Of a stretch of 64,000 nt of DNA, positions 4,717 through 49,145 are shown piece by piece. Position 1 is the stretch's first letter; every line of letters begins with the position of its first letter. Made by a program: the position numbers and the translations under genes. The DNA comes from an uncultured Bifidobacteriaceae bacterium. GTDB taxonomy: Bacteria > Verrucomicrobiota > Verrucomicrobiia > Limisphaerales > UBA11358. The notes under the pieces were generated by a model. That model ran no database searches. It was not told where the DNA came from and saw only the letters and a list, made by a program, of their open reading frames with translations. The stretch spans positions 1,275 to 65,274 of the forward strand of contig CAYVGC010000005.1 of assembly GCA_964449815.1 (NCBI GenBank), written 5' to 3'.

Positions 4717-5559
4717 TCAGGGCGGAAAACCAATCGCCAGCTTCACGGCGGAATACTCCGGGTGAATTTTCCCGTCGCGTGCGCGGATGATGAGCGGCGG
4801 CTCGGCCCAGGTCTGCCCGCGAAACCATTCCGGCAAATCGTCCGCACGCATCATTCCGAACAACGCAACCAGCGCCGGATCACCTTCGCGGAAAACCACC
4901 GGGCGTTTGCGGACGATGACCAGAGCCGAGTTTTTTGCGGCGGCTTCGACGCGCGCAAGCTGCGCGGGCTCATGCGGAAACACGCACGCGAAAAATCCGC
5001 CGGGCGCGAGCCGCCTTGCCGCCGTGGCGCAGTAATCGGCAATCGTTCCGCGCAGTTCAAACCGGCAGGCAAGTTTCTGAGGATGTTCGCTTTTCACGCC
5101 CGCGCCTGGCGGAAAATACGGCGGGCTGCCGGTGATGAGGTCGAATTTTTCGTCGGCGCGGAAAAAGTTTGGGTCGCGGAAATCGCCTTCCCGGATTTCA
5201 TAGCGGCCGGCCAGCCCGTTGTAACCCGCGGATTTTCTGGCGAGCGCGGCGCTTTCACTTTGCGCCTCAATGGTCACAAACTTTGCGCCGGGCAGACGCC
5301 ACGCGCAAATCATGCCGACGGTGCCGATGCCGCCACCGAGATCCAGCGCCGTGCGCGCCGCCGGACACCAAGTCGTGCCATACCATGCCGTCAAAATATC
5401 GTCGGTGGAAAACCGGTGGCCGGCGCGCAGTTGGAACAGCCGGAAATGTCCGCTGATGGCGTCGAGCGTTTCATGCGGTTCAAGCGTCACGTCCGCCGCG
5501 AGTCCCGGCGGCACCGGGCCGGGCTTGGCCCAGCCTTTGAAATGCGTTTCGCTTTTCAC
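4717..5559 (-). CDS. Class I SAM-dependent methyltransferase (TrmN6/YfiC-like, SPPY motif)
   Basis: LDLGGGIGTVG (motif I) and DLITGSPPYF (motif IV). GTG start at 5559 forms a GTGA overlap with the upstream CDF transporter stop. The longer ORF to 5751 overlaps that gene and has an Arg/Pro-rich, non-protein-like N-terminus. Confidence 0.7.
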   Translation of the reverse strand: MKSETHFKGWAKPGPVPPGLAADVTLEPHETLDAISGHFRLFQLRAGHRFSTDDILTAWYGTTWCPAARTALDLGGGIGTVGMICAWRLPGAKFVTIEAQSESAALARKSAGYNGLAGRYEIREGDFRDPNFFRADEKFDLITGSPPYFPPGAGVKSEHPQKLACRFELRGTIADYCATAARRLAPGGFFACVFPHEPAQLARVEAAAKNSALVIVRKRPVVFREGDPALVALFGMMRADDLPEWFRGQTWAEPPLIIRARDGKIHPEYSAVKLAIGFPP

Positions 5560-12816: not shown

Positions 12817-13473
12817 ATGTCTGTAAAACTTTTAAGCCACGATGCAAAACAATATTTGCAACTACGAATAAGGGAGTGGCGAAACTCTATAAGTAAATGG
12901 GAAGATATTAAAAGAAGGCTCCCAAATCAAGGAAGTGGGAGCTTTATGCATAAACGCTATTCCTTAAATTCTCAAAGTCATTCCATGTCCGATTTGATCA
13001 TGGAGATGGAGGCATTCTTAACGAAGTCAGAATTGTGGCAAAAAACAAACGATGACCCGACTCCTGTTGCTGGTCCCCCGGAAACGATGAAATCAATTTT
13101 TAAGAAAGAGATAAAGGGTGTGGTTATTTTGTGTTGCAATGCTTTTTTTGAAGTCAGTGGTTTGTATTCAACAGATGAAGCCAAGTTGTTGGTTCAAGAA
13201 AAAATCAGGAAGAGCAAAAGTGAAGTTGATTACTTAAAGTTCCGCCAAGAGACGCCTGAAGCCAGTTTGGAATATGAACGACTGCCAATTCCTGAAACGG
13301 TTCGAAACGAAGTTTGGCGGCGCGACCAGGGAAAATGTGCGCGATGCAAATCTGTCCGCAATTTAGAATTTGATCACATTATTCCAGTTTCCAAAGGCGG
13401 CAGCAATACAGCCAGAAACATTGAACTCCTTTGCGAGACTTGTAACCGACAGAAAAGTGCCAGCATTGGGTAA
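12817..13473 (+). CDS. HNH endonuclease-domain protein
   Basis: The C-terminus VWRRDQGKCARCKSVRNLEFDHIIPVSKGGSNTARNIELLCETCNRQK is an HNH motif. The N-terminal ~150 aa are unassigned. Single-gene AT-rich islet between dxs and uxaC. Confidence 0.8.
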   Translation: MSVKLLSHDAKQYLQLRIREWRNSISKWEDIKRRLPNQGSGSFMHKRYSLNSQSHSMSDLIMEMEAFLTKSELWQKTNDDPTPVAGPPETMKSIFKKEIKGVVILCCNAFFEVSGLYSTDEAKLLVQEKIRKSKSEVDYLKFRQETPEASLEYERLPIPETVRNEVWRRDQGKCARCKSVRNLEFDHIIPVSKGGSNTARNIELLCETCNRQKSASIG

Positions 13474-13635: not shown

Positions 13636-15045
13636 TTATTTCACGCCGGGGAAGGCCAGGTATTTTTTGGCGTTGGCGCAGCAGATGTTCTTGATCATCG
13701 GGCCGACGAGACTTTCGTCATCAGGAATCAAACCATTCTTCATGTCGCGGCCGATCAGATTGCACAGGTTGCGGCGGAAATACTCGTGGCGCGGATAGCT
13801 CATAAACGAACGCGAGTCGGTGATCATGCCGATGAAGCGCGAGAGCAAACCGAGGTTTGAGAGCGCGTTGAGCTGCCATTCCATGCCTTCCTTCTGGTCA
13901 AGAAACCACCAGCCGGAGCCGTATTGGATCTTGCCGGGAATCGTGCCGTCCTGAAAATTCCCGATCATCGCCGCGAACACATAATTGTCCGCCGGGTTCA
14001 AATTATAGACGATGGTTTTCGGCAGCAAATTGTCGGCATCCAGCTTGTTCAAATACGCCGCCAGCGTCTGCGCCTGCGGAAAATCGCCGATGGAATCAAA
14101 GCCCGTGTCCGGGCCGAGCTGCTTGAGCAGCCGCGTGTTGTTGTTGCGCAGCGCGCCGAGGTGAAGCTGCTGGGTCCAGCCGCGCCTGGCATCAAGCTGG
14201 CCGAAGAAGACCATCATGAACGAGGCGAACTGGGAATGTTCCAGCGGCGAAACCGCTTCGCCCTTGCGCGCCTGGTCAAAAATCCCGGCGGCAACTTTTT
14301 CGGAACAGAAATCCGCAAAACAATGGTTCAGACCGTGGTCGGACAGCCGGCAGTTCTGCGAATGAAAATACTCGTGCCGCTTCTCCAGCGCGCTGATGAA
14401 CGCACTGAAGCCATTGATGTCCACGTTCGCGGCGGCGGCAAGCTGCTCCACCCACAGGTTGAAGCCTGCGGGCGAGTTCACCGTCAGCGCCCGGTCGGGC
14501 CGGAACGCCGGCAGCATCTTGGTCGGATGGCCGGATTTGGCAAACGTGCGGTGAAATTCCAGGTTGTCCACCGGGTCGTCCGTCGTGCAGACGACTTTGA
14601 CCTTCATCTTTTTCAGGATGCCCTGCGTCGTGAACGCCGGCGTGGCGAGCTGTTCGTTCGCCTGCTTCCAGATTTTTGCGGCGGTCTTTTCGCCCAACAA
14701 CTCGCCGATGCCGAAGTGGCGCTTGAGTTCCAAGTGCGTCCAGTGGTAAAGCGGATTGCGCAGCGTGTGCGGCACGGTTCTGGCCCAGGCCTTGAACTTC
14801 TCCTCCGGCGCGGCGTTGCCGGTGACGAATTTTTCCGCGACGCCGTTGCTGCGCATCGCGCGCCACTTGTAATGATCGCCTTCCAGCCAGATTTCAAACA
14901 GGTTTTTGAACCGCCGGTTCTCCGCAATGTCCTTCGGCGGAAGATGGCAGTGGTAGTCAAAAATCGGTTCCGCCCCGGCGAATTTGTGGTAAAGCCGGCG
15001 CGCGGGCTTGTTGCCCAGCAGAAAATCTTCGTGGATGAAGGCCAT
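13636..15045 (-). CDS. uxaC: Glucuronate isomerase
   Basis: FLLGNKPARRLYHKFAGAEPIFDYHCHLPPKDI and 469-aa length are typical of UxaC. Confidence 0.92.
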   Translation of the reverse strand: MAFIHEDFLLGNKPARRLYHKFAGAEPIFDYHCHLPPKDIAENRRFKNLFEIWLEGDHYKWRAMRSNGVAEKFVTGNAAPEEKFKAWARTVPHTLRNPLYHWTHLELKRHFGIGELLGEKTAAKIWKQANEQLATPAFTTQGILKKMKVKVVCTTDDPVDNLEFHRTFAKSGHPTKMLPAFRPDRALTVNSPAGFNLWVEQLAAAANVDINGFSAFISALEKRHEYFHSQNCRLSDHGLNHCFADFCSEKVAAGIFDQARKGEAVSPLEHSQFASFMMVFFGQLDARRGWTQQLHLGALRNNNTRLLKQLGPDTGFDSIGDFPQAQTLAAYLNKLDADNLLPKTIVYNLNPADNYVFAAMIGNFQDGTIPGKIQYGSGWWFLDQKEGMEWQLNALSNLGLLSRFIGMITDSRSFMSYPRHEYFRRNLCNLIGRDMKNGLIPDDESLVGPMIKNICCANAKKYLAFPGVK

Positions 15046-17375: not shown

Positions 17376-18166
17376 CACGCATTCTCATCCTGCTCCCTTC
17401 GCTCGCGCTGCTGCGCCAGACCCTGCACGAATGGCTTCGCGAAACCAATTTGCCGAATCTCGCCTATCTCTGCGTCTGCTCCGATGCCAGCGTGAAGGAA
17501 GGCATTGACGCGCTCACCACGCAACAATCCGACCTCGACTTCCAAGTCTCCACCGAAGCCGCGAGTGTGCGCAGTTTTTTGGACGCGCCCTTTGCCGGCG
17601 TGAAAATGATTTTCTCCACCTACCAGTCCGCGTCCATGGTGGGCGCGACGATGAAGCCGGGCGAGACGTTTGATTTTGCCGTGTTCGACGAAGCGCACAA
17701 AACCGCCGGACGCGCAGGCCGCAACTTCGCCTTCGCCCTCGACGACCAAAATCTGCCCATCCGCAAACGCCTGTTCCTCACCGCCATGCCGCGCCATTAC
17801 AATCCGCACGACCGCGACCGCGAAGGCGAGGCCCGGCTGCTGTTTTCCATGGACAATCCCGCCGTCTATGGCCCGCAAGCCTATCGCCTGACGTTTGCCG
17901 AAGCCGCCCGCCGGGGGCATCATCTGCGGCTACAAAGTCATCATCTCCGTCATCACCTCCGAAATGGTGACGAACGCCTGTTGAGCCACGGCGAAGTGCT
18001 GGTGAACGGCGACGCCGTGCGCGCCCGGCAGGTGGCCAACCAGATTGCCCTGCGCGATGCCATTGAAAAATTCGGCGGAAAAAAGTGTTCACGTTTCATC
18101 GCGACGTGAAATCCGCGCAATCCTTCGTCAGCGCCGGCCCGGAGGGCGTCGGCACGCATCTCAATG

Positions 18167-18273: not shown

Positions 18274-18548
18274 TTTCAAACCTTCCACGTCAACGGCTCC
18301 ATGCCGACCGCGCGCCGCGAACGCGAACTGCGCGACTTCCGGGCGGCGGCGCGGGCCGTGGTATCCAATGCCCGCTGTTTGACGGAAGGCGTGGATGTTC
18401 CCGCCGTGGACATGGTCGCGTTCCTTTCGCCGCGCCGCGCCGGGTGGACATTGTGCAAGCCACCGGCCGCGCCATGCGCCGCTCGCCGGGAAAAACCACC
18501 GGCTATGTGCTGGTGCCGCTGTATGTCGAATTGTCTGCCGGCGAATGC

Positions 18549-18708
18549 GCGAAGCGTCGTGGAGTGCGCCGTTGCTCTGGCGCTTTGGGTGGGCGCGACG
18601 CCGAAAACGGCAACCGGGACGGGCGCGCTCCCCAGCAAAGTCCCATTGGTGGCCGTGCGCAAGCACCGGCCAATGGCGGTTTGGGGTGGACGAACGGGGC
18701 AAAGGGCG
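18549..18708. repeat. ~150-bp dispersed repeat, copy 1 (family B)
   Basis: GCGAAGCGTCGTGGAGTGCGCC...CTCTGGCGCTTTGGGTGGGCGCGACGCCGAAAACGGCAACCGGGACGGGCGCGCTCCCC...GGTGGACGAACGGGGCAAAGGGCG aligns along its whole length with 19085-19228. Confidence 0.8.
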
Positions 18709-18726
18709 CGGAGTCGCGGAGCGACG

Positions 18727-18891
18727 GCAGATAGTAGCCCACGGCGCGAGCCGTGGGTTAAACGAACCAAACGAATCCAGCCCCGGAGGGGGCGAAAGAA
18801 GATTACCGGCGGCTGGTTTTCTGTCGCCCCATCCGGGGCTTGGATGGTGTTGACGACCAGACCCACGGTTTCACCGTGGGCTACTATCTGC
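18727..18891. mobile_element. 165-bp MITE-like element with perfect 18-bp terminal inverted repeats
   Basis: GCAGATAGTAGCCCACGG (18727-18744) is the exact reverse complement of CCGTGGGCTACTATCTGC (18874-18891). Each end also forms a local CCCACGG...CCGTGGG hairpin. No coding capacity. Confidence 0.7.
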
Positions 18892-19084
18892 CGCGCCTCC
18901 GGCGCTGGAGCCGGCCGTGCGCCAGGGTGGCCGGCGGTAAAGACCCGGCCAAAGGCAGTTTGAGGTGGACGAACGGGGCAAAGGGCGTTTGAAATTACGA
19001 GCGTGTTTCGTGCGCGTTGAAAAAGCGGTGGAGGGCCACCGCACTCCAAGACGCTGGCGCGTTGACCGAGGGCCATCGAACCGC

Positions 19085-19228
19085 GCGAAGCGTCTTGGAG
19101 TGCGCCAGCCCTCTGGCGCTTTGGGCGGGCGCGACGCCGGAAACGGCCACCGGGACGGGCGCGCTCCCCGGCAATGTCCCAGCCGGGCGGCCAATGGCAG
19201 TTTGGGGTGGACGAACGGGGCAATGGGT
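19085..19228. repeat. ~150-bp dispersed repeat, copy 2 (family B)
   Basis: Aligns with 18549-18708. A third partial copy of the tail GGTGGACGAACGGGGCAAAGGGCG is at 18964-18987. Confidence 0.8.
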
Positions 19229-19265
19229 GTTTGAATTTCAACAACGTCAAAGGCGAACAATTAAA

Positions 19266-22260: not shown

Positions 22261-22798
22261 TTGTTGGCGCAAGCTACAACGATGTCAGCCCTGCGGGCTT
22301 GGCGGCCAATTTCCTTTCGTGTGCTTGGTGTGTTTCGTGGTTAAAATCCGGCCCCGGCCTTTTACCCGTCGTCGGTCTTTGCAGACGACCACCATTTTGG
22401 TTTGGTTTGGAATCTGCGTCCAAACCTTGCGGCTGCGAGATAAAATTTCCGCCACCCCTTCACGGTGGAATTATTTTTGGGGACGTTTTCCCGACGTAGG
22501 AACTGGCGCACCAACACCGGGTTAATATCCGCAGCACCTTCAGGGCTTCGGTTTGGTTGCGCGAGAATTCCTAAAAATCTGTGTTTATCTGTGTGCATCT
22601 GTGGCGGGTTTAATAAAACCCTTTGTTTATTAGGGTTTGCTCGCCGGATGGACGGCCACTGTCAGCAAAAGTGTCAGTCACGGGGCGGATGGTAATACAA
22701 TTCGCCAAAACTGGCCAGAACTTGCTGAAACTTTGCCACAACGCGCGTTCTAAACCGCCGTTGAAACAGGACTGGTATCTCGACAGAGAAAGCCAGTT

Positions 22799-23824
22799 AT
22801 GAAAACGAAATACACCTTGTTCCGGCGCGGCGAAATGTTCTACATGCAGGACAGCGCGACCGGCAAACAGACCAGCCTACGCACCAAAGACGAAACCGAG
22901 GCCAAGAGCCTTTTGGAAGCCCGCAACGCGGCGCAGCGCCAGCCAGTGCTGAATTTGCACCTTGCCCGCGCCTACCTGACAGCCAGCGACCCCGCCTTTG
23001 TGGAACGCACTTGGCAGGTTGTCATGGAACAGATGCAGAGCCGAGGCAAGGACAGCAGCCGCGAGCGTTACGCCAGCGTGTTCAAGTCGCCCAGCTTCGA
23101 CGGCTTGCGAAACAAGAAATTGATGGAAACCACCGCCGACGATTTCTTTGCCGTGTTCAAACAAAACAAAGTCGCCATTAACGAGTTTTTGAAACGGCTG
23201 CATAATTTCGCCGTGCATCTTGGCTGGATTGCCATTCCCATCATTGCGCCCTACCTGTGGCCGAAATACGAACCCAAAGACCGGCGCGGCATCACGCAGG
23301 CCGAGCATGAAAGCGTTTTGCAGAAGGAGAAAAACGCCGAGTGGAAATTGTATCTGGAATTGCTTTGGGAAACCGGCGCGGCGCAGAGCGACGCGGTTAA
23401 TTTCAAGGCCGAGGACATTGACTGGCAGAGCCGGACAATTTCTTATTTCCGAATGAAAACCGGCTCGCTGGCACAGTTCACCATTAGCAAGGCACTGGAA
23501 ACGGTTTTAAGCCATTTGCCGACCACCGGCGCATTGTTCCCGAAGTTGTCCACGTTCACGGCAAACGACCGCGCCAGCCGTTTCCGCCGCCGTTGCCACA
23601 AGGCAGGCGTGACCGGCGTAACGCTCCATTGTTACCGCTACGCATGGGCGGAACGGGCAAAAGTTGTCGGGATGCCGGAACGGTTTGCCCAGGCTGCGCT
23701 TGGGCATAACAGCAAGGCGATTCACCGCGCCTATGCGAAAAAGGCAATCATCGTCGCGCCATCCCTTGAAGAATACGAAGCAAAGGCAGCAGCAGCCACG
23801 CAGCAAAAACTGGTTGCGGCCTAA
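22799..23824 (+). CDS. Tyrosine-type site-specific integrase (integrase 1)
   Basis: C-terminal catalytic region: LHCYRYAWAERA (HxxR) and LGHNSKAIHRAYAK (His/Tyr). At the first-Arg box it reads WETGAAQSD, so Arg I may be substituted. Confidence 0.75.
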   Translation: MKTKYTLFRRGEMFYMQDSATGKQTSLRTKDETEAKSLLEARNAAQRQPVLNLHLARAYLTASDPAFVERTWQVVMEQMQSRGKDSSRERYASVFKSPSFDGLRNKKLMETTADDFFAVFKQNKVAINEFLKRLHNFAVHLGWIAIPIIAPYLWPKYEPKDRRGITQAEHESVLQKEKNAEWKLYLELLWETGAAQSDAVNFKAEDIDWQSRTISYFRMKTGSLAQFTISKALETVLSHLPTTGALFPKLSTFTANDRASRFRRRCHKAGVTGVTLHCYRYAWAERAKVVGMPERFAQAALGHNSKAIHRAYAKKAIIVAPSLEEYEAKAAAATQQKLVAA

Positions 23825-28146: not shown

Positions 28147-28470
28147 GATTTAGACCTTAAAACTCACTGTTGATTGAACGGCTATTTGTCCCGATTTCTA
28201 CTGCTTGTGGTTTTAGAATTCTTTTGCTACTACGGAATCAAGAAAAGCCGCATTTTTTACACAGTCACTTACACATACACAGTTTGCACCAGAAAAACTC
28301 ATTTTAATTCAAGGTGGTTGCGCTAGACCTAAAAGGACTTAAAAGCAAATCGTAGAAATCTAAAAAGCGCCTAAAACCCTAGTAAAACCGCCGTTTTTTC
28401 GTTGCCCGAACCGTTAAAATGTGTTACACATTACTTACACACTTTTGGTGGCTTTTTTAGGGGGGAAATC

Positions 28471-29679
28471 ATGCCAGAGCATCACCGTTTGATGGACGGA
28501 AAGCTTCATCTATACCGCCGCGAAAATAGCAGCTATTGGCAGTGTTCCACCTATCTCAATGAGAAGAACTGGCGCATATCCACAAAGGAGGACAGTCTTG
28601 CCTTGGCGAAAGATATAGCCTTGGACTGGTATCTCGGCTTGCGCGGCAAAAGTCGCAATGGCGATTTGAAAACCGGCAAAACCTTCAAAGATGCAGCCGT
28701 AAAATTCGTCGCCGAATATGCCATACTCACAGCCGGAGAACGCAACGCGCAATACGTGAAGGGACTCGGCGAAAAAATTAAACTTCATCTGATACCGTTT
28801 TTTGGCGACAAAGTTTTGTCCGAAATCACCCCCGGCCTGGTGCAGGAGTATCGCATCCACCGCGCAACATCGCGGATAAATCCAAAGACTGGTCAACCAA
28901 AACGACCGACACGCAGCACACTTCACAAAGAGATCGTGACGTTGCGGCACGTTTTGAAAACGGCCAACCGTCACGGATGGTTGCCCTACTTACCCGACCT
29001 CTCCGCACCCTACAAAACTTCGGGAAAGGTTACACATCGCGCTTGGTTTTCCCCGGAAGAATACAAGCGGCTTTACGACGCCACGCGCGAACGTGCGAAA
29101 CATCCCAAAAAATTACGCTGGAAAACGCAGTGTGAAAACTTCCATGACTACATCCTGTTCATGGCAAACACCGGGTTAAGGCCGGATGAAGCCATCCGCC
29201 TCGAATTTCGAGACGTTGCCATCGTCACCGATGAAGCAACGGGCGAACGCATCCTCGAAATCGAGGTTCGGGGAAAACGCGGTGTCGGCTACTGCAAAAG
29301 TATGCCCGGCGCTGTCCTACCCTTTGAGCGTTTGAAGAAACGCAAGCGGCCAGCGACGACTGACAGAGTTTTCGGAAAAACACAACATGAGCTGCTAAAC
29401 GCAATTCTCAAAGAATTGAATTTGAAATTTGATCGCGACGGCAACCGGCGCACCGCATACAGTTTGCGTCACACCTACATTTGTATGCGCCTCATGGAAG
29501 GAGCGGACATTTACCAAGTCGCAAAAAACTGCCGCACTAGCGTTGAAATGATCGAAAAATACTACGCTTCACATATTAAAAACACGCTGGACGCAGCGGC
29601 AATCAACGTGCGGAAGCCGAAACCGCCCAAGAAAAAACGCGCCACGCCCCGAAAAGACGAAAAAGACCCAGCAAATTGA
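28471..29679 (+). CDS. Tyrosine-type site-specific integrase (integrase 2)
   Basis: ATG 28471 is preceded by AGGGGGGAAA. Motifs: ANTGLRPDEA (Arg I), VRGKRG (Lys), YSLRHTYICMRL (box II Arg-His), VEMIEKYYASH (Tyr). It ends 53 bp before the tRNA-Leu gene. Confidence 0.85.
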   Translation: MPEHHRLMDGKLHLYRRENSSYWQCSTYLNEKNWRISTKEDSLALAKDIALDWYLGLRGKSRNGDLKTGKTFKDAAVKFVAEYAILTAGERNAQYVKGLGEKIKLHLIPFFGDKVLSEITPGLVQEYRIHRATSRINPKTGQPKRPTRSTLHKEIVTLRHVLKTANRHGWLPYLPDLSAPYKTSGKVTHRAWFSPEEYKRLYDATRERAKHPKKLRWKTQCENFHDYILFMANTGLRPDEAIRLEFRDVAIVTDEATGERILEIEVRGKRGVGYCKSMPGAVLPFERLKKRKRPATTDRVFGKTQHELLNAILKELNLKFDRDGNRRTAYSLRHTYICMRLMEGADIYQVAKNCRTSVEMIEKYYASHIKNTLDAAAINVRKPKPPKKKRATPRKDEKDPAN

Positions 29680-29689
29680 ACCTTTTCCC

Positions 29690-29718
29690 TTGGCTATCAG
29701 CAATTCAGATACTATAGC
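29690..29718 (+). promoter_or_regulatory. Candidate sigma-70-like promoter of tRNA-Leu
   Basis: TTGGCT (29690-29695), a 17-nt spacer, then TATAGC (29713-29718). The tRNA 5' end is 13 nt downstream. Pattern match only. Confidence 0.35.
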
Positions 29719-29731
29719 TGAAAATGGCTTT

Positions 29732-30024
29732 GCGGGCGTGGCGGAATTGGTAGACGCAACGGACTTAGGCCAAATTCTTGAGTGCTCTTGTGGGAAACCC
29801 AGGATGCAGAACTGCTCAAATTCGGGGAAACCTTTAACATGGCAATCCCGAACCAAGCCCGCGAGGGAAGGTGTAGAGACTAGACGGGCAGCACCTAAAG
29901 CATTTGCCAAGGTGAAGGGATAGTCCAGACCACAAACGCCGCAAGGCGGCGGCGAAAGCCGTAGTTGGTAAGAAAATCCGTCGGGCGCAAGCCCTTGGGG
30001 GTTCGATTCCCCCCGCCCGCACCA
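29732..30024 (+). tRNA. tRNA-Leu(UAA) interrupted by a group I intron in the anticodon loop
   Basis: Exon 1 (29732-29766): GCGGGCGTGGCGGAATTGGTAGACGCAACGGACTT. Exon 2 (29973-30024): AAAATCCGTCGGGCGCAAGCCCTTGGGGGTTCGATTCCCCCCGCCCGCACCA. When joined they give a 7-bp acceptor stem (GCGGGCG/CGCCCGC), a D arm, an ACGGA/TCCGT anticodon stem with loop CUUAAAA (anticodon UAA), a long variable arm, a GGGGG-TTCGATT-CCCCC T arm, and an encoded CCA. Confidence 0.85.
29767..29972 (+). ncRNA. Group I intron (IC3-like, tRNA anticodon-loop type), 206 nt
   Basis: Inserted between U34 and A35, as in cyanobacterial and plastid tRNA-Leu(UAA). Conserved cores CAAATTCGGGGAAACC (29817-29832) and GGAAGGTGTAGAGACTAGACGGG (29866-29888) are near-identical, from memory, to the Azoarcus and Anabaena pre-tRNA introns. 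GAGT at 29780-29783 can pair with exon ACTT, giving the U.G pair at the 5' splice site. The terminal G is at 29972. There is a GCGAAAGC tetraloop hairpin near the 3' end. Confidence 0.8.
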
Positions 30025-31132: not shown

Positions 31133-32035
31133 TCACATTTCAATTTCCGGCCCGTCCTTTTGACGGGTCTTGTCCACCAGCTTCCGCCAAGAGTCTTTAA
31201 CCACCGTCGCGGCTTGTTCCCGGATGCGGGACATGAAGGTGATGGATTTTTCCCACCATGTTCCACCCATCCCCACTTGCGCCACTTCGCCGCGCTTCAA
31301 TACGGCCCTCATCATGGCCTTAACTTCGTTCATCATTTTCACTTCCCGGACGGCCTTGAACCGCTCCGGGTCTTGCAGGATGCCCTTGCGCTTCATGGCC
31401 GTTGCTTCCTTGCCGATTTTCGGCTGCGGAATCTGGTCAATGCCCCGGTCTTTGAGCGACCGATGATCCACCCGTTCCGGGCGTCCGGCCTTTTCCAAGG
31501 CGGCATTGACGGCGTCAGCCCAGGACTGGCGTTGCCTGACCAGCAACCCCTTGTCATTCCATTCCCGTGGTTTCTTGGCGCTGAATTTTTCGCCGTCTAG
31601 CTTCCGCATGGTGCAGAGGATATGCACATGGGGATTCTTGCCAGCCTTATCATGATGGAGGGAGATTTCGGCAACCATGCCGGAAGCGACCAGCTCTTTT
31701 TTGGCCCAATCCAGCGCCGTCTGGAATTGGGCATCGGCGGGCAGTTCCTTGGGAACCGCCAGAATAAACTCGCGTGCAAGTTGTGCATCAACCCGCTTCT
31801 CGCCCGCCTCGACTTTGTTCCAAAGCGCCCCCGAATCATGCACCCATCCGGGCGCACCGTCGGGGGCTAAAATGTCCGAATGGATGACGCCCTTGGCTCG
31901 GCGGGCGTAGTCGAAAATTTTGTCACGAATCTCATCCTTGAGCTTCGTGCCTGCCCGATACGCGGCGGCGGCAATGACCGACCGCCCCCGCTTCTCGCGG
32001 CTGAAAATCTTCGCCTCTAGTCTAAATATCGCCAT
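31133..32035 (-). CDS. MobA/MobL (MOBQ-type) relaxase
   Basis: The N-terminus MAIFRLEAKIFSREKRGRSVIAAAAYRAG carries the catalytic Tyr region. ISLHHDKAGKNPHVHIL is the HxDxxxxNxHxH 3-His metal motif typical of MobA/MobL relaxases. Confidence 0.85.
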   Translation of the reverse strand: MAIFRLEAKIFSREKRGRSVIAAAAYRAGTKLKDEIRDKIFDYARRAKGVIHSDILAPDGAPGWVHDSGALWNKVEAGEKRVDAQLAREFILAVPKELPADAQFQTALDWAKKELVASGMVAEISLHHDKAGKNPHVHILCTMRKLDGEKFSAKKPREWNDKGLLVRQRQSWADAVNAALEKAGRPERVDHRSLKDRGIDQIPQPKIGKEATAMKRKGILQDPERFKAVREVKMMNEVKAMMRAVLKRGEVAQVGMGGTWWEKSITFMSRIREQAATVVKDSWRKLVDKTRQKDGPEIEM

Positions 32036-32564: not shown

Positions 32565-34046
32565 ATGTCCTATGGCAAGAAACAGTTGCCCGAATTCCAC
32601 CCGCAAACGGTGTTGCGGGATTGGGGCAATGGCGAAGGCTTCCGCCTTTCAGACGCCCTCACGGGCGTCTGTGTGTTCGGCGCAACCGGAAGTGGTAAAA
32701 CTTCCGGGCCAGCAAAGCACCTGGCCTACGGCTACCTAGCCGCCGGTTTCGGCGGGCTGGTGCTTTGTGCCAAGAAGGAGGAACGCCGCCAATGGGAACA
32801 ATGGGCGGCGGAAACCGAGCGGACGGACGACCTTGTCATCATAGATGCCAGCGGTCAAAACCGCTTCAATTTCATGGCATGGGAGGCCAGCCGCCCGGAG
32901 GCTGGCGGCGGCCTGACGATTAACATCGTCAATCTTCTGGACGAAATCGCTACGGCGATTTCCGGGGGCAGCGGGCAGACCGAAGGGGGCGGCGGATCAA
33001 ACAAGTTTTGGGAAGATGCCCTTCACCACATGAACACCAATCTGGTGGACTTGCCCTTGTTTGCCGAAATTCCCGTTTCACTTCCGCTGCTTGCCGACAT
33101 CGTCGCATCCGCTCCATTGAATCCAGAACAGGCCAGCAGTGATGAATGGAAGGAGCAAAGCGTGTGCGGCAAGATTTTGAGGGAAGCGGACGAGGCCACC
33201 AAAAAAGCCGACGCGGGAACCCGCGACGATTTCACACGATGCCAAAAATATTGGGAAGTGGAGTTTCCCAATTTGGCCGAAAAAACCCGCAGTATCATTA
33301 GCTTGACGTTTTCCATGCTGGCAAGGCCGCTTGTTACGCGGCCATTGCGGGAACTTTTTTCCGCCGACACCAACATCAAACCGGAGGACGCATTTGGGGG
33401 CAAGATCATCATCGTTGATTTGCCCGTCCAAGAATTTAGGCTCGTTGGCCGGATTGCCAACCTTGCTTGGAAATACTGCTTTCAAGTGGCCGTCTTGCGA
33501 CGGACACCACCGACCAAACCGGACGCCTATTTGCGGCCGGTTTTTTTATGGGCGGACGAAGCGCAAAATTTCGTCACGAATTTTGACGCCGAGTATCAGG
33601 CCACGGCAAGATCCGCTGGCGGATGCACCGTGTATCTGACGCAGAACCGCGAGAGCTACGGGCGAGTTTTGAAAAACATGAATGCGGTGGATTCCCTTTT
33701 GGGAAATTTGCAGTGCAAATTCTTTTGCCAGAACACCGGCTTAACAAACGATTGGGCATCGTTCATTTTGGGCCAACGCTGGGTCAAGACCACCAGCACC
33801 AGCGCCGGCCAGTCGCAGAATGACGCCACTCCCAAGAATCCCGACGAACAGCGCAGCCACAATTCCGGGGTGAACCGCAGCGAACAGAAAAAGCTCTTTG
33901 TCGAACCGGCGACCTTCACGACGTTGAAGCGCGGCGGGCCAGCTCATAATTTTCAGGTGGAGGCCATCGTCTATAATGGCGGCAATCTTTTTTATGACGG
34001 CAATCTTGCGTTGCCGTTCCGCCTGCTGACGTTCAACCAGCGATAA
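32565..34046 (+). CDS. Type IV coupling protein-like ATPase (TraG/TraD/VirD4 family)
   Basis: Walker A GATGSGKTS, Walker B-like VFLWADEAQNF and YLTQNRESY. ATG 32565 (MSYGKKQLPEF). No N-terminal TM segments seen. Confidence 0.7.
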   Translation: MSYGKKQLPEFHPQTVLRDWGNGEGFRLSDALTGVCVFGATGSGKTSGPAKHLAYGYLAAGFGGLVLCAKKEERRQWEQWAAETERTDDLVIIDASGQNRFNFMAWEASRPEAGGGLTINIVNLLDEIATAISGGSGQTEGGGGSNKFWEDALHHMNTNLVDLPLFAEIPVSLPLLADIVASAPLNPEQASSDEWKEQSVCGKILREADEATKKADAGTRDDFTRCQKYWEVEFPNLAEKTRSIISLTFSMLARPLVTRPLRELFSADTNIKPEDAFGGKIIIVDLPVQEFRLVGRIANLAWKYCFQVAVLRRTPPTKPDAYLRPVFLWADEAQNFVTNFDAEYQATARSAGGCTVYLTQNRESYGRVLKNMNAVDSLLGNLQCKFFCQNTGLTNDWASFILGQRWVKTTSTSAGQSQNDATPKNPDEQRSHNSGVNRSEQKKLFVEPATFTTLKRGGPAHNFQVEAIVYNGGNLFYDGNLALPFRLLTFNQR

Positions 34047-36102: not shown

Positions 36103-38985
36103 GTGACCCAAAACGGCATCACCCCGTATCACGCTTGTTACTATGCCCATGAGCTAACAAGACGTTGCCCTTCCGACAGCCTGCAAAAACTGGCTGCGAC
36201 GCTGGCTGACGCTCAGGTGGATTTGAACCCCCATCAAATTGATGCCGCCCTTTTCGCATTCCGCTCCCCCCTTTCAAAGGGTGCAATCCTGGCGGATGAA
36301 GTCGGCTTGGGAAAAACAATTGAGGCCGGGATTCTACTTTCGCAGAAATGGGCGGAGCAAAAGCGCAAACTTTTAATCATCGTCCCTGCCGCATTACGCA
36401 AGCAGTGGAATCAGGAACTTGCCGATAAATTTTTCCTTCCGTCTGTAATTTTAGAAAATCGCTCGTTCAATCAAATCATCAAACAGGGCAATCTCAATCC
36501 GTTCGACCAAAATGAAATCGTCATTTGTTCGTATCACTTTGCCCGCGCCAAAGACGTTTATGTAAAAAAGGTAAATTGGGATTTGGTCATCGTGGATGAG
36601 GCTCACCGCCTGCGAAATGTTTACAAGCCCACGAACCGCATTGCCAACGCAATCAAAAACGCAATTGCAGACGCGCCAAAAGTATTGCTGACGGCAACGC
36701 CACTGCAAAATTCAATTCAGGAACTTTATGGCTTGGTGAGCATCGTTGACGGTTTTACCTTCGGCGATCTCAAAAGCTTCAAGGCGCAATTTGGACTCCT
36801 ACGCACAGAAGAAGATTTTGCTGCCCTCCGTGAACGCATTAAGCCGGTAGTTCAGCGCACACTGCGACGGCAAGTGCTGGAATACATCAAATACACAAAT
36901 CGCATCCCGATTACGCAGGAATTCATCCCGTCAGAGGCAGAACAAAAACTTTATGATTTGGTTTCCGGTTATCTGCAACGCGAAACATTGTATGCGCTGC
37001 CTTCGAGCCAGCGCCAACTGATGACGCTCATTCTCCGAAAATTGCTGGCGTCTTCGACCTACGCGATTTCCGGCACATTAGACGCACTGGCGAGCCGCCT
37101 TGAAACGGCGGCTGCCAAAAATACTCCAACCGTAGACACTCCAGAAGAAGTCACCGCCGATTTCGAGGCAATTGATGAAGTTGAGGAAGAATGGGACGAA
37201 GATGAAACGCCAGAAAAAGCCGAGCGCGTCTACACGGAGGAAGACAAAGAACGGATACGAGCCGAAATAAAATCGCTGCGCGAATTCAAAGAGCTTGCCA
37301 CTTCCATCGTCAAGAATTCCAAAGGAGAAGTGCTTCTCACCGCGCTCAAAAAAGGCTTTGCGAAAGCGCGGGAACTCGGTGCGCCGGAAAAGGCAATCAT
37401 TTTTACCGAATCCACCCGCACACAGGAATATCTTTACCGGGTTCTCGAACAGACAGCCCATGCTGGCAAAATCGTCTTGTTCAATGGCTCAAACAAGGAT
37501 GCGAAGTCGAAAGCAATTTACGCCGCATGGATGGAACGGCACAAAGACACGGATCGTATTACCGGCGCCCCAAGTGCCGACATGAGACAGGCGCTAGTGG
37601 ATTATTTCCGCGATGATGCCGTCATCATGGTTGCTACGGAAGCAGCGGCAGAAGGAATTAACCTACAATTTTGCTCACTTGTGGTGAACTACGACTTGCC
37701 GTGGAATCCACAACGCATTGAGCAGCGGATTGGCCGCTGCCACCGCTACGGCCAGAAATACGATGTGGTTGTCGTAAATTTCCTGAACAAAAACAACGCT
37801 GCCGACCAACGCGTGTATGAACTTCTCCGCGACAAATTCCAACTTTTCAGTGGCGTCTTTGGTGCAAGTGACGAAGTGCTTGGCAGCATTGAATCTGGCG
37901 TAGATTTTGAGAAACGCATTGCCGACATTTATCAAAATTGCCGCACACCAGATCAAATTGAATTTAATTTCAATACGTTGCAAAGGGATTTGGAAGTCAG
38001 AATTGATGAGCGGATGCACCAAACACGGCAGAAGTTGCTGGAAAATTTTGATGAAGCCGTCCAAGAAAAGCTGCGCCTGGGCAAATTGCAAACAGAGGAA
38101 ACCCTTGGGCGCTATGAACAATGGCTGTGGCAAATCACCCGATTTTTTCTTTCGGATTACGCAAATTTTGAAGATGGCAAAAACGCCTTTATTTTGACCC
38201 GCAATCCATTTCCAGAAGAAAACATTCATCCCGGCCCGTATCGTTCAGGCAAAAATGTTGAAGATGCAAATCTCTACCGTGTCGGACATCCATTAGCACA
38301 ACGTATCATTAGCAGGTGTATGGAATTGCCGACACCAGAAGCGGAATTGATTTTTAATTATTCCCAAACGGGACGAAACATTTCAGTAATCGAGCCGTTA
38401 TGTGGCAAGGGCGGATGGCTGGTTGTTCAAAAGCTCACAGTCACGGCGTTTGAAACGGAAGACCATGTTTTGCTGGCTGGCGTAACGGATGACGGCAAAG
38501 TGCTAGATGACGAGCTATGCCGTCGGCTGTTGTCGCTTTCAGCTTCAATAAATCCGCTCCAAACTGACGGGAATGGCGAAGGTCACAAAAATATTCTCCG
38601 CGATTTGCTGGACGTAGAACGCCAGCTTATTTTCGATGATTTAGAACAAAAGAACGGCTCGTATTTTGAGGGAGAATTGGACAAGCTGGATCGCTGGGGT
38701 GAAGACCAGCGTGCTTCCCTGAAATTGGCTCTCAAAGAATTGGAAGACCAGATTAAGGAAACTCGCCGCAATGCGCGGTTGGCGGGCAGCCTGCCTGAAA
38801 AATTAAAACTGGAACGCCAAAAGCGCGACATGGATTCAAAGCGCGACGAGGCTTGGAAACAATACGAGCAAGCGGCCAAAGACATCGAAGCGAAAAAAGA
38901 TGGATTAATGGATGAGGTCGAAAAACGCCTGAAACAACAAATCACCGAAAAGGTTCTTTTCAAAATCAAATGGCAAGTGAAGTGA
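36103..38985 (+). CDS. SNF2-family helicase/ATPase with a ~340-aa C-terminal extension ending in a coiled coil
   Basis: SNF2 N-domain: LNPHQIDAALFAF...ILADEVGLGKTIEAG (motif I), VIVDEAHRLRN (motif II), LLLTATPLQNS (motif III). Helicase C: MVATEAAAEGINLQ, NPQRIEQRIGRCHRYGQ (motif VI). The C-terminal 620-960 region is unassigned and Lys/Glu-rich at its end. Confidence 0.85.
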   Translation: MTQNGITPYHACYYAHELTRRCPSDSLQKLAATLADAQVDLNPHQIDAALFAFRSPLSKGAILADEVGLGKTIEAGILLSQKWAEQKRKLLIIVPAALRKQWNQELADKFFLPSVILENRSFNQIIKQGNLNPFDQNEIVICSYHFARAKDVYVKKVNWDLVIVDEAHRLRNVYKPTNRIANAIKNAIADAPKVLLTATPLQNSIQELYGLVSIVDGFTFGDLKSFKAQFGLLRTEEDFAALRERIKPVVQRTLRRQVLEYIKYTNRIPITQEFIPSEAEQKLYDLVSGYLQRETLYALPSSQRQLMTLILRKLLASSTYAISGTLDALASRLETAAAKNTPTVDTPEEVTADFEAIDEVEEEWDEDETPEKAERVYTEEDKERIRAEIKSLREFKELATSIVKNSKGEVLLTALKKGFAKARELGAPEKAIIFTESTRTQEYLYRVLEQTAHAGKIVLFNGSNKDAKSKAIYAAWMERHKDTDRITGAPSADMRQALVDYFRDDAVIMVATEAAAEGINLQFCSLVVNYDLPWNPQRIEQRIGRCHRYGQKYDVVVVNFLNKNNAADQRVYELLRDKFQLFSGVFGASDEVLGSIESGVDFEKRIADIYQNCRTPDQIEFNFNTLQRDLEVRIDERMHQTRQKLLENFDEAVQEKLRLGKLQTEETLGRYEQWLWQITRFFLSDYANFEDGKNAFILTRNPFPEENIHPGPYRSGKNVEDANLYRVGHPLAQRIISRCMELPTPEAELIFNYSQTGRNISVIEPLCGKGGWLVVQKLTVTAFETEDHVLLAGVTDDGKVLDDELCRRLLSLSASINPLQTDGNGEGHKNILRDLLDVERQLIFDDLEQKNGSYFEGELDKLDRWGEDQRASLKLALKELEDQIKETRRNARLAGSLPEKLKLERQKRDMDSKRDEAWKQYEQAAKDIEAKKDGLMDEVEKRLKQQITEKVLFKIKWQVK

Positions 38986-41630
38986 GCATAAAGGCACCGA
39001 AATCTGTGCTTCACGACATCTACGAATGGTCAATCGGAAGACCTTCGTGGCTACGCGATGCCTTGAGGCGAATCATAACAAATGGAAAATTGGACGATGC
39101 CGATTTGACGGAACTTGAACACTTGTGCCGCCAAACGCCAAACCCTACCGGCGTTGACGGTAAACCACTCGCGGCTACCCCGCTGGCAGAGGAGCACTTG
39201 CCCGCTGGCCCATCCTCCAAAGAATCCGTCACCATTGAGTATTTGAATGATCTGGCCGGAGTCAACAAGTTGCCATCCGGCCAAAAAATTACCTTCGGAA
39301 CGTCGCCTGGACTAACCATTTTCTACGGCGACAACGGCTCTGGCAAATCGGGCTACGCCCGCGTCATCAAGAAGGCTTGCCGCTCGCGTGGAACCGCTCC
39401 GGTAATTCGCCCGGATGCGTTTTCGGAAACGCCTGTCCACGCCTCTTGCAAAATTGGCATCAATGTCAGCGGCACAGGCTCCGAAATCCATTGGAAGGAC
39501 AACCAAGCATCTGACGCAAAACTTGCCAGTGTCTTTGTATTCGACGGTGACGCAGCGAAGGATTATTTGACCGCCGACGGCCCTGCCAGCTTTACGCCTT
39601 TCGGCTTGGACGTTTTGCCGAAGCTCTCCAAGGCGTGTGACGCTCTCGCAACTAGAATAAGAAACGAAGTCGCAAATGTAACCGCTGCAATCGAAGTCGG
39701 GAAAACGGCACTGAACAAATATCCCAACACGGCTGTCGGCGCAACCCTGGACAAACTCAATTCCAAGACTTCTTCCGCAAATGTGCTGCTTTTGGGAAAG
39801 CTGACCGATACAGAAACCAAAAGGCTCGCCGAATTGCGGACGCTTTTGAGTTCCGACCCAAAAAAGAAAGCCGCTGAAACAAGGGCGGCAAAAAAGCGCA
39901 TTGAGACTTTCAAAACCCTCCTCCTCGGAAATGCCGCCCTGCTTTCCGCCGAGAAAATCAACCAACTGAAAATTGCTTTTGAAAACACGGCGGCTACGGA
40001 AGCCGCCGCAAAAGCCGCCGCCGAAAGCAAGTTTGCAGAGGGTGTCGTGACCGGAACCGGCAGCGATTTGTGGCGAGCCATGTGGGATGCCGCAAAATCG
40101 TTTTCAACCACGACCGTATATCCCGGTAAAGACTTTCCTCAAACGGGCAACCAGGACCGTTGCGTCCTTTGCCAACGCCCATTCGGGGATGATGCCGAAG
40201 CAGTCGCTCTCGCAGGCTCCTTTGTGAAGTTCTGCAACGAGGATGTTCAGAATTCCTCAAAAACTGCCCGTAAAAAGTTGAATACTGAAAAGGCAGCGTT
40301 TGAAACCAAATCCGGCCTAAAAGCGGAACATGAAAAAATCGCCACTGATTTGGCGGCCTTGACAGAAATAGAAATCAAGTTGTTGGCCGAGTTTATTGTT
40401 TCCGCCGACGATTGCCTCAGCACGGTCAAAAAGTCCTTTGCCGATGACAAATGGGCGCAGCCCGTTCAGCTTGCCGCCGCCCCGACTTTAATTCTCACCG
40501 TCCTGATCGAAAATCTCGAAAAGCGAGCCGTCACGGAGGAATCCGCAGACGACCCAGTGGCACGAAAAAAACTTCAAACCGACCTTAACGAACTTGCGGC
40601 AAAAGAATGGCTCAACACGGTCGAGCAAGACGTGAAAGACCAAATCCAAAGGTTCAAAAACCTCGATGGACTAAATGAACGGCTCGCTGACACAAGAACA
40701 AACCAAATCACGACGAAGAATTCCGAACTCACGCAGGAATTGATAACCGATGCCTACTGCAAGCGCTTCGCCGACGAACTCGCGCAACTCGGCATCCGTT
40801 CCTTGAGTGTGAATCTTGAGGCCATCGGCGGTGCCAAAGGCGAGAAGAAATTTGGCGTTCGGTTACAGGGAGCGAAGGGAAAAGCTAATGTCTTTGAGAT
40901 TGCCAGCGAAGGCGAACAACGCTGCATCGCTTTGGCCTCTTTCCTCGCGGAACTCTCCCAATGCTCGCACAACTCGGCCCTTGTATTTGACGACCCGGTT
41001 TCCTCGCTGGACCACTTTTTTCGCGGCAGAATCGCTTTCCGTCTCTCCAAAGAAGCGCAGCACCGCCAAGTCATCGTTTTTACTCACGACACGGTATTTC
41101 TGAATGATTTAATATCGGAGGCAGGAACCGCCAAGGTTCCGTGCTCCACATTCTATTTGCGTTGGGAGGGCAGTAATCCCGGCAAAGTCGAGGCGGGCTT
41201 GCCGTGGGATTGCAAATCCCCACAAGACCGATTGGATAAACTGGAAAAAATGCAAAAGGCTTTGGAAAAGAAATGGCAGCCTTACCCTGACGAAGCCTTG
41301 AAAGCCGAAATGGGGAACGCATACAGCGACTTGAGGGCGACCCTGGAGCGCATTATTGAGAAGGTCATTTTCGCAGATGTTGTTTTCCGCTTCCGTTCGT
41401 ATGTCAATCTCGGAAGGCTCGACGAAGTTGTTGGCTTTTCCCAAACGGAATGTGACGAGGTTCTGCGGCTTTTCAAAAAGTGCTGTGATTATACCCCGGC
41501 TCACGATGCGCCCGCAGGGAAACATGCGACCGTTCCCGCACCTGCGGAACTCGCAAAAGACATTGACGACACCAAAAAACTGTTGGAAACCATAAAGTCT
41601 CGCCGGAAAACCATAAAAGTCGCTGCCTAA
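38970..41630 (+). CDS. AAA_13-type ABC ATPase with a coiled-coil CxxC zinc hook (RloC/PrrC-like architecture)
   Basis: Walker A YGDNGSGKSG, signature-like SEGEQRCIALASFL, Walker B ALVFDDPVSSLD and H-loop VIVFTHD. A long helical insertion contains DRCVLCQRPF (CxxC). It also has a ~110-aa N-terminal extension and a ~165-aa C-terminal domain. The ATG overlaps the SNF2 gene by 16 nt. Confidence 0.75.
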   Translation: MASEVSIKAPKSVLHDIYEWSIGRPSWLRDALRRIITNGKLDDADLTELEHLCRQTPNPTGVDGKPLAATPLAEEHLPAGPSSKESVTIEYLNDLAGVNKLPSGQKITFGTSPGLTIFYGDNGSGKSGYARVIKKACRSRGTAPVIRPDAFSETPVHASCKIGINVSGTGSEIHWKDNQASDAKLASVFVFDGDAAKDYLTADGPASFTPFGLDVLPKLSKACDALATRIRNEVANVTAAIEVGKTALNKYPNTAVGATLDKLNSKTSSANVLLLGKLTDTETKRLAELRTLLSSDPKKKAAETRAAKKRIETFKTLLLGNAALLSAEKINQLKIAFENTAATEAAAKAAAESKFAEGVVTGTGSDLWRAMWDAAKSFSTTTVYPGKDFPQTGNQDRCVLCQRPFGDDAEAVALAGSFVKFCNEDVQNSSKTARKKLNTEKAAFETKSGLKAEHEKIATDLAALTEIEIKLLAEFIVSADDCLSTVKKSFADDKWAQPVQLAAAPTLILTVLIENLEKRAVTEESADDPVARKKLQTDLNELAAKEWLNTVEQDVKDQIQRFKNLDGLNERLADTRTNQITTKNSELTQELITDAYCKRFADELAQLGIRSLSVNLEAIGGAKGEKKFGVRLQGAKGKANVFEIASEGEQRCIALASFLAELSQCSHNSALVFDDPVSSLDHFFRGRIAFRLSKEAQHRQVIVFTHDTVFLNDLISEAGTAKVPCSTFYLRWEGSNPGKVEAGLPWDCKSPQDRLDKLEKMQKALEKKWQPYPDEALKAEMGNAYSDLRATLERIIEKVIFADVVFRFRSYVNLGRLDEVVGFSQTECDEVLRLFKKCCDYTPAHDAPAGKHATVPAPAELAKDIDDTKKLLETIKSRRKTIKVAA

Positions 41631-48864: not shown

Positions 48865-49145
48865 AACCATTCAAATTTGCGGCTGGACTGGCAACGGTTC
48901 AGCCGCACACTGTCAGTGAAAGTGTCAGTTAAAGCACCGAAAAGTTAGCAAAAATAGTGACGAGTTAGAGCGAATTTGCATTGTTTAATCAATGGTTTTC
49001 GCTAGTTTATTGAAATCTGATTTAGATATACAGACTGTGTTCATCTGTGGCCCACCCCATCCGCATTGCGCCCCTGCACGCCAATCGTGGTTAATTTTCC
49101 CGAAACAGGACACTTTTTATCCCAAAAACGAGGATTCCAAGTTCT

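Follow-up and report, generated by a model that had tools for sequence, protein, structure and literature searches.

Is an intron-split tRNA gene that lies beside an integrase gene in mobile DNA the attachment site of that DNA, or part of its cargo? We asked this of the tRNA-Leu(UAA) gene at positions 29732-30024 (+) of a 64,000-nucleotide (nt) stretch of a Verrucomicrobiota genome (contig CAYVGC010000005.1), the whole of which we refer to as the window. The original prediction, made by a model from the letters of the window, had proposed a tRNA-Leu(UAA) gene interrupted by a group I intron in a mobile island and had raised the question of target or cargo. Our overall reading, which we hold at a probability of roughly 80%, is that a tRNA gene with an intron of class Leu.3Ug is carried as cargo by a 26.4-kb island, that it is preceded by a small integrase element (int2), and that decoding of UUA codons is its likely benefit. 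The locus adds one Verrucomicrobial, island-borne example to a known and widely distributed class of tRNA introns.

Structure of the split tRNA-Leu(UAA) gene

The gene encodes a class II tRNA-Leu(UAA) and is cut between anticodon nt 34 and 35. Exon 1 (GCGGGCGTGGCGGAATTGGTAGACGCAACGGACTT; 29732-29766, +) consists of 35 nt, namely nt 1-34 plus one, and ends in GGACTT with the wobble U34 as its last nucleotide. The group I intron (29767-29972, +) follows with 206 nt, the first being A and the last G, and exon 2 (29973-30024, +; 52 nt, AAAATCCGT...CGCCCGCACCA) runs from A35 to an encoded CCA. The two exons, the 34/35 site, the terminal G and both core strings quoted in the original prediction were confirmed in every coordinate and letter. 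When introns are allowed, ARAGORN calls tRNA-Leu(taa) i(36,206) at the locus; on the sequence spliced in silico it returns an 87-nt class II cloverleaf, again tRNA-Leu(taa), with Watson-Crick pairs throughout all stems, A73 and the encoded CCA. In its default mode the program does not call the gene at 29732-30024.

A promoter-like sequence, TTGGCT-N17-TATAGC (29690..29718, +), ends 13 nt 5′ of the tRNA, and a CTTGGC...TATA(G/C) motif is kept 5′ of homologous tRNA genes. The open reading frame (ORF) of int2 ends at 29679, 52 nt before the start of the tRNA. Judged by its intact sequence and structure, the locus is a functional-looking tRNA-Leu(UAA) gene.

Fold, class and predicted splicing of the intron

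That the intron belongs to group I (IC3-type) was borne out by an Rfam match, by the intron mode of ARAGORN and by covariation among homologs. The Rfam model Intron_gpI (RF00028; gathering score 50 bits) matches 29757-29951 end to end, over model positions 1-253, with 56.4 bits (E 1.3e-11), so that the match is full-length and above the gathering score. We collected 86 distinct end-to-end homologs of the precursor from species genomes and aligned 45 for RNAalifold, which finds compensatory changes in 42 of 84 pairs. All five tRNA helices are recovered, with the anticodon stem closing across the intron, together with P1, P2, P3, P4, P5, P6, P8, P9, P9a and P9b of the intron. In the window (all +) P1 occupies 29764-68/29778-82, P2 29783-93/29798-808, P3 29812-17/29886-91, P4 29822-27/29846-51, P6 29858-61/29863-67, P8 29892-901/29906-14 and P9 29929-33/29964-69, while P5 is a short hairpin. 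P7 (GACTA 29878-82/TAGTC 29921-25, +) is invariant as GACUA/UAGUC in the set of 45 and therefore uninformative there; a plasmid homolog described below has GACUG/CAGUC, a compensatory change.

The splice junctions are equally well kept. All 45 aligned homologs have the U.G wobble that marks the 5′ splice site (here U29766.G29780, within P1), and both GACTT at the end of exon 1 and the 3′ junction G/AAAATC are retained in 86 of 87 end-to-end homologs; the corresponding omegaG in the window is 29972 (+), directly before AAAATC. This degree of junction conservation, combined with compensatory changes in half of the pairs, takes the case for an intron-split tRNA far beyond chance.

IC3 introns lack P5(a-d) (PMC11835236). 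The window intron is small, is inserted at 34/35, has no P5abc extension and contains no credible ORF in its 206 nt, as in IC3 introns of the tRNA type, class Leu.3Ug. By its sequence it is an intact compact group I intron of this class and is predicted to be catalytic. Under established group I chemistry, P1, with its U34.G wobble, would form between exon 1 and the internal guide, an exogenous guanosine would attack after U34, and the terminal G at 29972 would then dock in P7 before the exons are ligated. The expected product is an 87-nt tRNA with encoded CCA.

We weighed this picture against decay, in which the intron has lost splicing or the tRNA its expression, and the gene just travels with int2. 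Decayed integrase fragments are present at many int2 loci (L007, L017, L092, L094), the window's own displaced 5′ half has degenerated (see below) and no canonical sigma-70 promoter was found. Against this, the tRNA stems are all perfect, the core helices, U.G pair and omegaG are intact, substitutions relative to homologs are compensatory, and the int2 ORF has its full length. In addition, the pre-tRNA is 90-91% identical to its counterpart in a Verrucomicrobiia metagenome-assembled genome (MAG; locus L270) compared with 58-71% for the flanking proteins, which points to purifying selection on the RNA and to stronger constraint on the RNA gene than on its neighbors. Decay is in our judgment unlikely.

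The tRNA gene as cargo of a 26.4-kb island

GC content is 46-55% between ~19 and 49 kb of the window and ~60% in the flanks. The extent of the inserted DNA is given by an empty-site contig from another sample (L125; JGI 3300037184 Ga0395719_001774), which is 99.95-99.98% identical to both flanks and joins window position 22605 to 49035 through a single copy of CTGTGTGCATCTGTGGC. By comparison with this contig, the window has two copies of the 17-bp direct repeat, attL (CTGTGTGCATCTGTGGC; 22589..22605, +) and attR (CTGTGTTCATCTGTGGC, with one mismatch to attL; 49035..49051, +). The tRNA gene lies 7.1 kb inside the island, and L125 lacks the whole segment 22606-49034, tRNA included. We found no repeat derived from the tRNA or the intron elsewhere in the window, where matches were at chance level (best 21 nt, 4992-5012, E 0.39). 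An island-free relative, boundaries formed by a 17-bp non-tRNA sequence and the lack of any tRNA repeat together identify the tRNA as cargo and not as the attachment site of the island. The comparison with related DNA that lacks the island, which the original prediction had put forward, thereby settles its question of target or cargo. Since a near-identical strain does without the island, we argue that the tRNA is accessory.

The 26.4-kb segment is an integrative mobilizable element rich in defense genes, inserted at a 17-bp non-tRNA site of a Verrucomicrobiota chromosome. Its left part comprises int1, an AbiV-like HEPN protein, a sigma-70 family protein, a GmrSD-Schlafen(AlbA_2) fusion, int2 and the tRNA; a MobQ relaxase, a TraG-like coupling protein, a DrmD-like SNF2 helicase and an AAA_13/PDC-S06 ATPase follow, and the right end holds type III Mod and Res, RadC and DUF6573. 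The tyrosine recombinase int1 (22799..23824, +; Pfam Phage_integrase E 8.7e-12) lies 194 bp inside attL and, from this position, is likely the integrase of the island. As first described, an integrase and a relaxase of the mobile island enclose the tRNA: int2 ends at 29679 and the MobA/MobQ-family relaxase occupies 31133..32035 (-; Pfam MobA_MobL E 6e-65; NCBIfam MobQ 217 bits, cut-off 200). The TraG/TraD-like coupling protein (32565..34046, +; Pfam TraG-D_C E 1.9e-8) is a 493-aa gene call in L121. The small island ORFs received no specific NCBIfam name. L270 has the same gene order, int-tRNA-orf152-MobA...TraG, and given the protein identities of 58-71% noted above, the association of the tRNA module with the mobilizable backbone is old.

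The company of defense genes suggests a second alternative, that the island tRNA or its intron counters or partners an anticodon nuclease and that a spare tRNA-Leu(UAA) protects the host or the element. Candidate nucleases are the AAA_13 protein as a RloC/PrrC-like enzyme, the HEPN protein AbiV, the Schlafen-AlbA_2 domain of the GmrSD fusion and, just outside the island, the HEPN protein AbiU2. The AAA_13 ABC-type ATPase (38970..41630, +; 886 aa; Pfam AAA_13) has a CxxC, with CVLC near residue 410. Its gene is flanked by those of the DrmD-like SNF2 helicase and of type III Mod/Res, which recalls the restriction linkage of RloC/PrrC, and HEPN and Schlafen-type domains are nearby. An AAA_13 head, a CxxC and an adjacent type III restriction-modification system are all present, but they are common to many AAA_13 proteins and not specific. 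The PrrC/RloC link of the original prediction fared poorly: the PrrC model matches weakly and within the ATPase part only (E 1.1e-4, residues 646-722), the best family is the uncharacterized PADLOC candidate PDC-S06 (E 2.4e-181), and a PDB sequence search with the protein returned no relatives. Moreover, anticodon nucleases cut mature tRNA, which has already lost the intron, so the split in the gene can give it no protection. The adjacency of int2 and the tRNA is fully explained by the target preference of the integrase family, and at other loci this tRNA module is present without such genes. A nuclease-related role is very unlikely on this evidence.

The int2 integrase family and its target

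int2 (28471..29679, +) is a probable, divergent tyrosine recombinase of a tRNA-Leu-associated family. It scores 21.9 bits with Pfam Phage_integrase (cut-off 27.1), the same model matches 13 of 18 int2 homologs at E<=0.01 (best 2.6e-6), SAM-like N-terminal domains are matched as well, and the family alignment has invariant TGLR..., SLRHT... and EKYY motifs. NCBIfam has no specific name for it. More than 559 relatives with 62-79% identity occur in species genomes of many phyla, and we inspected 80 of these loci. A tRNA gene on the same strand lies at most 300 bp downstream in 63 of the 80, with 61 called tRNA-Leu. The intronless genes among the 63 are 38 Leu(CAA), five Leu(UAA/UAG) and one called tRNA-Tyr(GUA); the split ones are 16 Leu(UAA) with the same intron, two Leu(CAA) with an intron and one ‘Tyr’ that is a mis-parsed Leu(UAA). 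One further adjacent split gene was called Phe and is also a mis-parsed Leu(UAA). We rejected the ARAGORN intron calls ‘Ser’, ‘Phe’ and ‘Tyr’ at related loci for the same reason.

A copy of the tRNA 5′ half is found ~100 bp upstream of the integrase in ~45 of the 80 loci. These halves extend across the anticodon loop (...GGACTTAAAA or ...GGACTCAAAA) and end in a sharp transition to element DNA, beginning with a conserved AT-rich leader that carries TTACACA-N4-TTACACA. The direct repeat lies at 28424..28441 (+) in the window and at the same position in 17 of 17 aligned leaders of the family; it is a candidate binding site of the integrase or a regulator. The configuration with a 5′ fragment, met in ~45 of 80 loci and in L279, has left only a decayed relic in the window. 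This is the anticodon-loop-like core GGACTTAAAAGC (28334..28345, +), which aligns with the junction of the 5′ half ...GGACTTAAAA and element DNA in int2 homologs, and whose ~25 preceding nt resemble a decayed tRNA 5′ half, in the same decayed form as in L270. GGACTTAAAAGC may be what remains of the displaced 5′ half of an intronless tRNA-Leu(UAA), or attL of the int2 element. In Sphingorhabdus (L279, 8459-12825) three full-length integrase genes alternate with three 5′ halves and are followed by an intact tRNA-Leu(CAA). Tandem arrays of the family with displaced tRNA-Leu(CAA) 5′ halves are also present in L251 and L255 and indicate that integrase-only elements of ~1.4-1.5 kb inserted serially.

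The simplest reading is that the family consists of ~1.4-1.5-kb elements made of an integrase and a tRNA 5′ half with promoter. Recombination of such an element in the anticodon loop of a tRNA-Leu gene would give the gene a new promoter and 5′ half and would leave the resident 5′ half displaced upstream, a geometry that would explain the 52-nt spacing between integrase and tRNA. The tRNA in the window carries the signature of a former target of a small int2-type element just upstream. The displaced 5′ fragments are intronless, and GGACTTA is common to intronless and intron-containing genes because the intron starts with A, so the crossover could lie just 5′ of the intron insertion point. The intron is not simply a passenger of int2, since its similarity does not track that of the integrase: the closest integrases (L208-L210, 76-79%) stand beside intronless Leu(UAG) genes or a distant copy, and the closest introns (L034, L099, L051, L009) have no int2 nearby. 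A literature search on tRNA-Leu integrases with group I introns returned nothing relevant.

Integrase genes beside tRNA genes usually mark tRNA-targeting islands, int2 ends 52 nt upstream and its family does target tRNA-Leu, yet that the tRNA is the chromosomal attachment site of the island and resident host DNA is contradicted for the 26.4-kb island and very unlikely, given that L125 has one 17-bp repeat unrelated to the tRNA in place of 22606-49034, that no tRNA fragment is repeated in the window and that the tRNA has mobile-element genes to its left and right.

As a separate observation, homologs (53-70%) of the DrmD-like SNF2 helicase lie directly downstream of int2-associated tRNA-Leu genes in Alphaproteobacteria (L245, L225, L223, L243, L273, L241), and beyond them L245, L225, L223 and L243 have a weaker match (27-32%) to the type III methyltransferase of the window. 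A DrmD-like/type III defense module may thus have landed repeatedly 3′ of these tRNA genes.

Probable codon supply and weight of the overall reading

Supplying codons that an element uses and its host seldom does is an established role of tRNAs on phages and plasmids. TTA makes up 6.4% of leucine codons in the island genes (6.1 per 1000 codons) and 0.7% in the flanking host genes (0.7 per 1000). Decoding of UUA, a codon nine-fold commoner in the island than in its GC-rich flanks, is the most likely benefit of the cargo tRNA.

Several points weigh against our overall reading and keep us from a higher figure. The Rfam match exceeds the gathering score by just 6 bits, and a strict sigma-70 promoter scan upstream of the tRNA passed no promoter, the motif at 29690..29718 included. 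The assignment of int2 to the tyrosine recombinases draws on sub-threshold Pfam matches and conserved motifs only, and PDB sequence and profile searches with int2 found nothing. The crossover may fall on either side of the intron insertion point; int2 may have targeted a gene that already had the intron, or the intron may have arrived later, and it may now block excision. The codon-supply benefit is a correlation only, and a second, native tRNA-Leu(UAA) in the host is deduced only from the island-free sister strain and five TTA codons in the flanks.

Host and distribution of the intron

The flanking housekeeping genes (sdhAB, a Mur-ligase-family gene and uxaC/uxaE) have ~60% GC. SdhA is 89% identical to that of a Verrucomicrobia subdivision 3 MAG, followed by an unclassified MAG (86%) and one from Verrucomicrobiae (80%), which agrees with the original impression of a non-cyanobacterial host. 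The JGI metagenome contig 3300041809 Ga0455670_0002271 matches the window with 100% identity.

The host had been thought an unusual lineage for this intron, a view we could not sustain: the same intron occupies the same site in at least 86 other non-cyanobacterial species genomes sampled. Its 20-nt core AAGGTGTAGAGACTAGACGG, which we take to be present in the Azoarcus ribozyme as well, occurs in at least 120 species genomes, in the context of tRNA-Leu, -Met/Ile, -Arg, -Ser, -Phe and -Thr. Of the 120 core-matching loci listed, 66 align end to end with the tRNA-Leu(UAA) precursor of the window and come from Alpha-, Beta- and Gammaproteobacteria, Acidobacteriota and Binatia. ARAGORN also called Leu(UAA) genes with longer introns at Bacteroidota and Chloroflexota loci, and a search based on the integrase added Armatimonadota, Nitrospinales (Nitrospinota) and one Verrucomicrobiia MAG. 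In a phage collection we found just partial matches to the intron core. A survey of ~80 000 bacterial genomes reported 5292 intron-split tRNA genes, distinguished 21 classes of bacterial tRNA group I introns and listed Leu.3Ug (CUU/a...g/AAAA) among four classical ones (Williams 2020, bioRxiv 10.1101/2020.01.27.920355). The window intron belongs to a widespread, already surveyed class, the host lineage is not unusual and the find as such is fairly ordinary.

The original prediction had also likened the intron to the cyanobacterial and plastid type. Insertion site and architecture are indeed shared, but the sequence clade is different: in a neighbor-joining tree the 30 cyanobacterial tips are monophyletic and exclude the window. 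The window copy has a mean identity of 80% to non-cyanobacterial copies and 65% (maximum 68%) to the 30 cyanobacterial ones, and in the same comparison its pre-tRNA is 91% identical to the Verrucomicrobiia copy L270.

Two further observations concern relatives of the gene. Some intron-bearing tRNA-Leu(UAA) genes (L245, 11252-11590; L081) show an acceptor stem with an A5/C68 mismatch or a G.U pair, as expected if 5′ and 3′ halves differ in lineage after replacement of the 5′ half. In L210, exon 1 and the first ~130 nt of the intron (12821-12988) are duplicated 1.7 kb upstream of the complete gene (14716-15027), with two membrane-protein ORFs between the partial and complete copies, which suggests insertion or recombination inside the intron.

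Intron-split tRNA-Leu on plasmids

A distant-mode plasmid search returned 1271 records. Four conjugative plasmids of Bradyrhizobium carry a full-length copy with 82% identity, one of them with a C-terminal fragment of int2 directly upstream. A further homolog is present on more than 1260 PLSDB plasmids from Escherichia, Klebsiella, Salmonella, Acinetobacter and others, where it has a small hypothetical ORF on one side and the AAA-ATPase/aac(3)-IId resistance genes on the other. Examples are pCTX-M3 (NC_004464.2, 61823-62121; L288, 5001-5299) and the chromosome of E. coli AR_0013 (L290), and a copy at least 99% identical is found in 646 of 5426 complete E. coli genomes. This plasmid copy has a 35-nt exon 1, a 213-nt intron and a 51-nt exon 2, and splicing in silico gives an 86-nt tRNA-Leu(UAA). 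Its Rfam score of 36.8 bits is below the gathering score, and it shows compensatory changes in P7 and the T stem; from its sequence the tRNA-Leu(UAA) and its group I intron are apparently intact. Its nearest relatives are Alphaproteobacterial copies, and an anticodon-loop-like relic, CCAGCGGACTTAAAAAGTC, lies ~170 nt upstream.

RefSeq annotates no RNA feature at the plasmid or E. coli copy. We found no paper on a tRNA-Leu copy linked to aac(3)-IId, and a literature search combining group I introns with tmrB gave nothing relevant.

Other features of the window

The sole default-mode ARAGORN call in the window, a 97-nt ‘tRNA-Val(GAC)’ at 18345-18441, is a probable false positive within helicase-like coding sequence. 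The region overlaps coding sequence with helicase motifs that continues, in another frame, an ORF ending at 18109 and is probably part of a frameshifted gene. Two matches to the Acido-Lenti-1 RNA motif lie in opposite orientation at 18712-18757 (-) and 18862-18906 (+), with 55.3 and 46.8 bits, both within a stretch (18547-19238) of direct repeats, each 50-100 nt long, that closely follows a disrupted helicase/Mrr-like gene. The low-GC segment 19017-22588, just outside the 26.4-kb island, encodes an NHL-repeat protein, the HEPN protein AbiU2 and a Trypsin_2 protein; it is also present in the empty-site contig and so may be an older, separate acquisition.

Significance

Of greater interest than the intron are its surroundings, namely the proposed replacement of 5′ halves by integrase-only elements and the mobility of split tRNA genes. 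Mobilizable islands and plasmids can carry an entire intron-split tRNA gene as an accessory, and this bears on the long-standing question of how tRNA introns without ORFs spread horizontally. Going further, we suggest tentatively, and with more doubt than conviction, that the intron-bearing tRNA-Leu(UAA) circulates between phyla as functional cargo of mobile DNA, by way of undescribed integrase-only int2 elements and resistance plasmids. If this is true, an intron at the exact crossover site of the integrase may affect re-use of that site, and if the copies on plasmids and elements are expressed and spliced, they add UUA-decoding capacity to hosts and elements. The int2 family offers a clean natural system for asking whether site-specific recombination is prevented or tolerated when the anticodon loop holds an intron. 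For annotation, the consequence is that standard procedures (ARAGORN defaults, PGAP) miss such genes, so the tRNA inventories of many genomes and plasmids are incomplete.

Comparison with known systems

Among tRNA introns, the closest parallel is the cyanobacterial and plastid tRNA-Leu intron, which has the same host gene, the same insertion point (CUU/a...g/AAAA), a compact IC3-like architecture, the same U-1 and omegaG, and no ORF. The window copy differs in belonging to a separate sequence clade and in residing on a mobile island; it also encodes CCA, whereas the cyanobacterial tRNA-Leu genes compared have a GGGGG acceptor stem and no encoded CCA. Other non-cyanobacterial tRNA introns, such as those of Azoarcus tRNA-Ile and Agrobacterium tRNA-Arg, interrupt other tRNAs at another exact position of the loop, whereas the window intron is Leu.3Ug.

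As a cargo gene, the tRNA resembles those of phages, plasmids and integrative and conjugative elements, in that an accessory tRNA is carried on mobile DNA of lower GC and has as its cognate codon TTA, which is scarce in host genes and enriched in those of the element. Unlike them, it is split by an intron.

As an integration system, the int2 family shares with the 5′-tDNA-fragment islands of Islander the displaced 5′ half, the integrase, the regenerated tRNA and a crossover centered on the anticodon. Islands that leave a 5′ tDNA fragment account for 159 of 3919 in Islander, whose pipeline drops candidates below 2 kb, so units as small as the int2 elements would not have been listed there. In contrast to those islands, the int2 unit is ~1.4-1.5 kb long, below the 2-kb filter, and contains the integrase only, and in the window its module is nested in another island.

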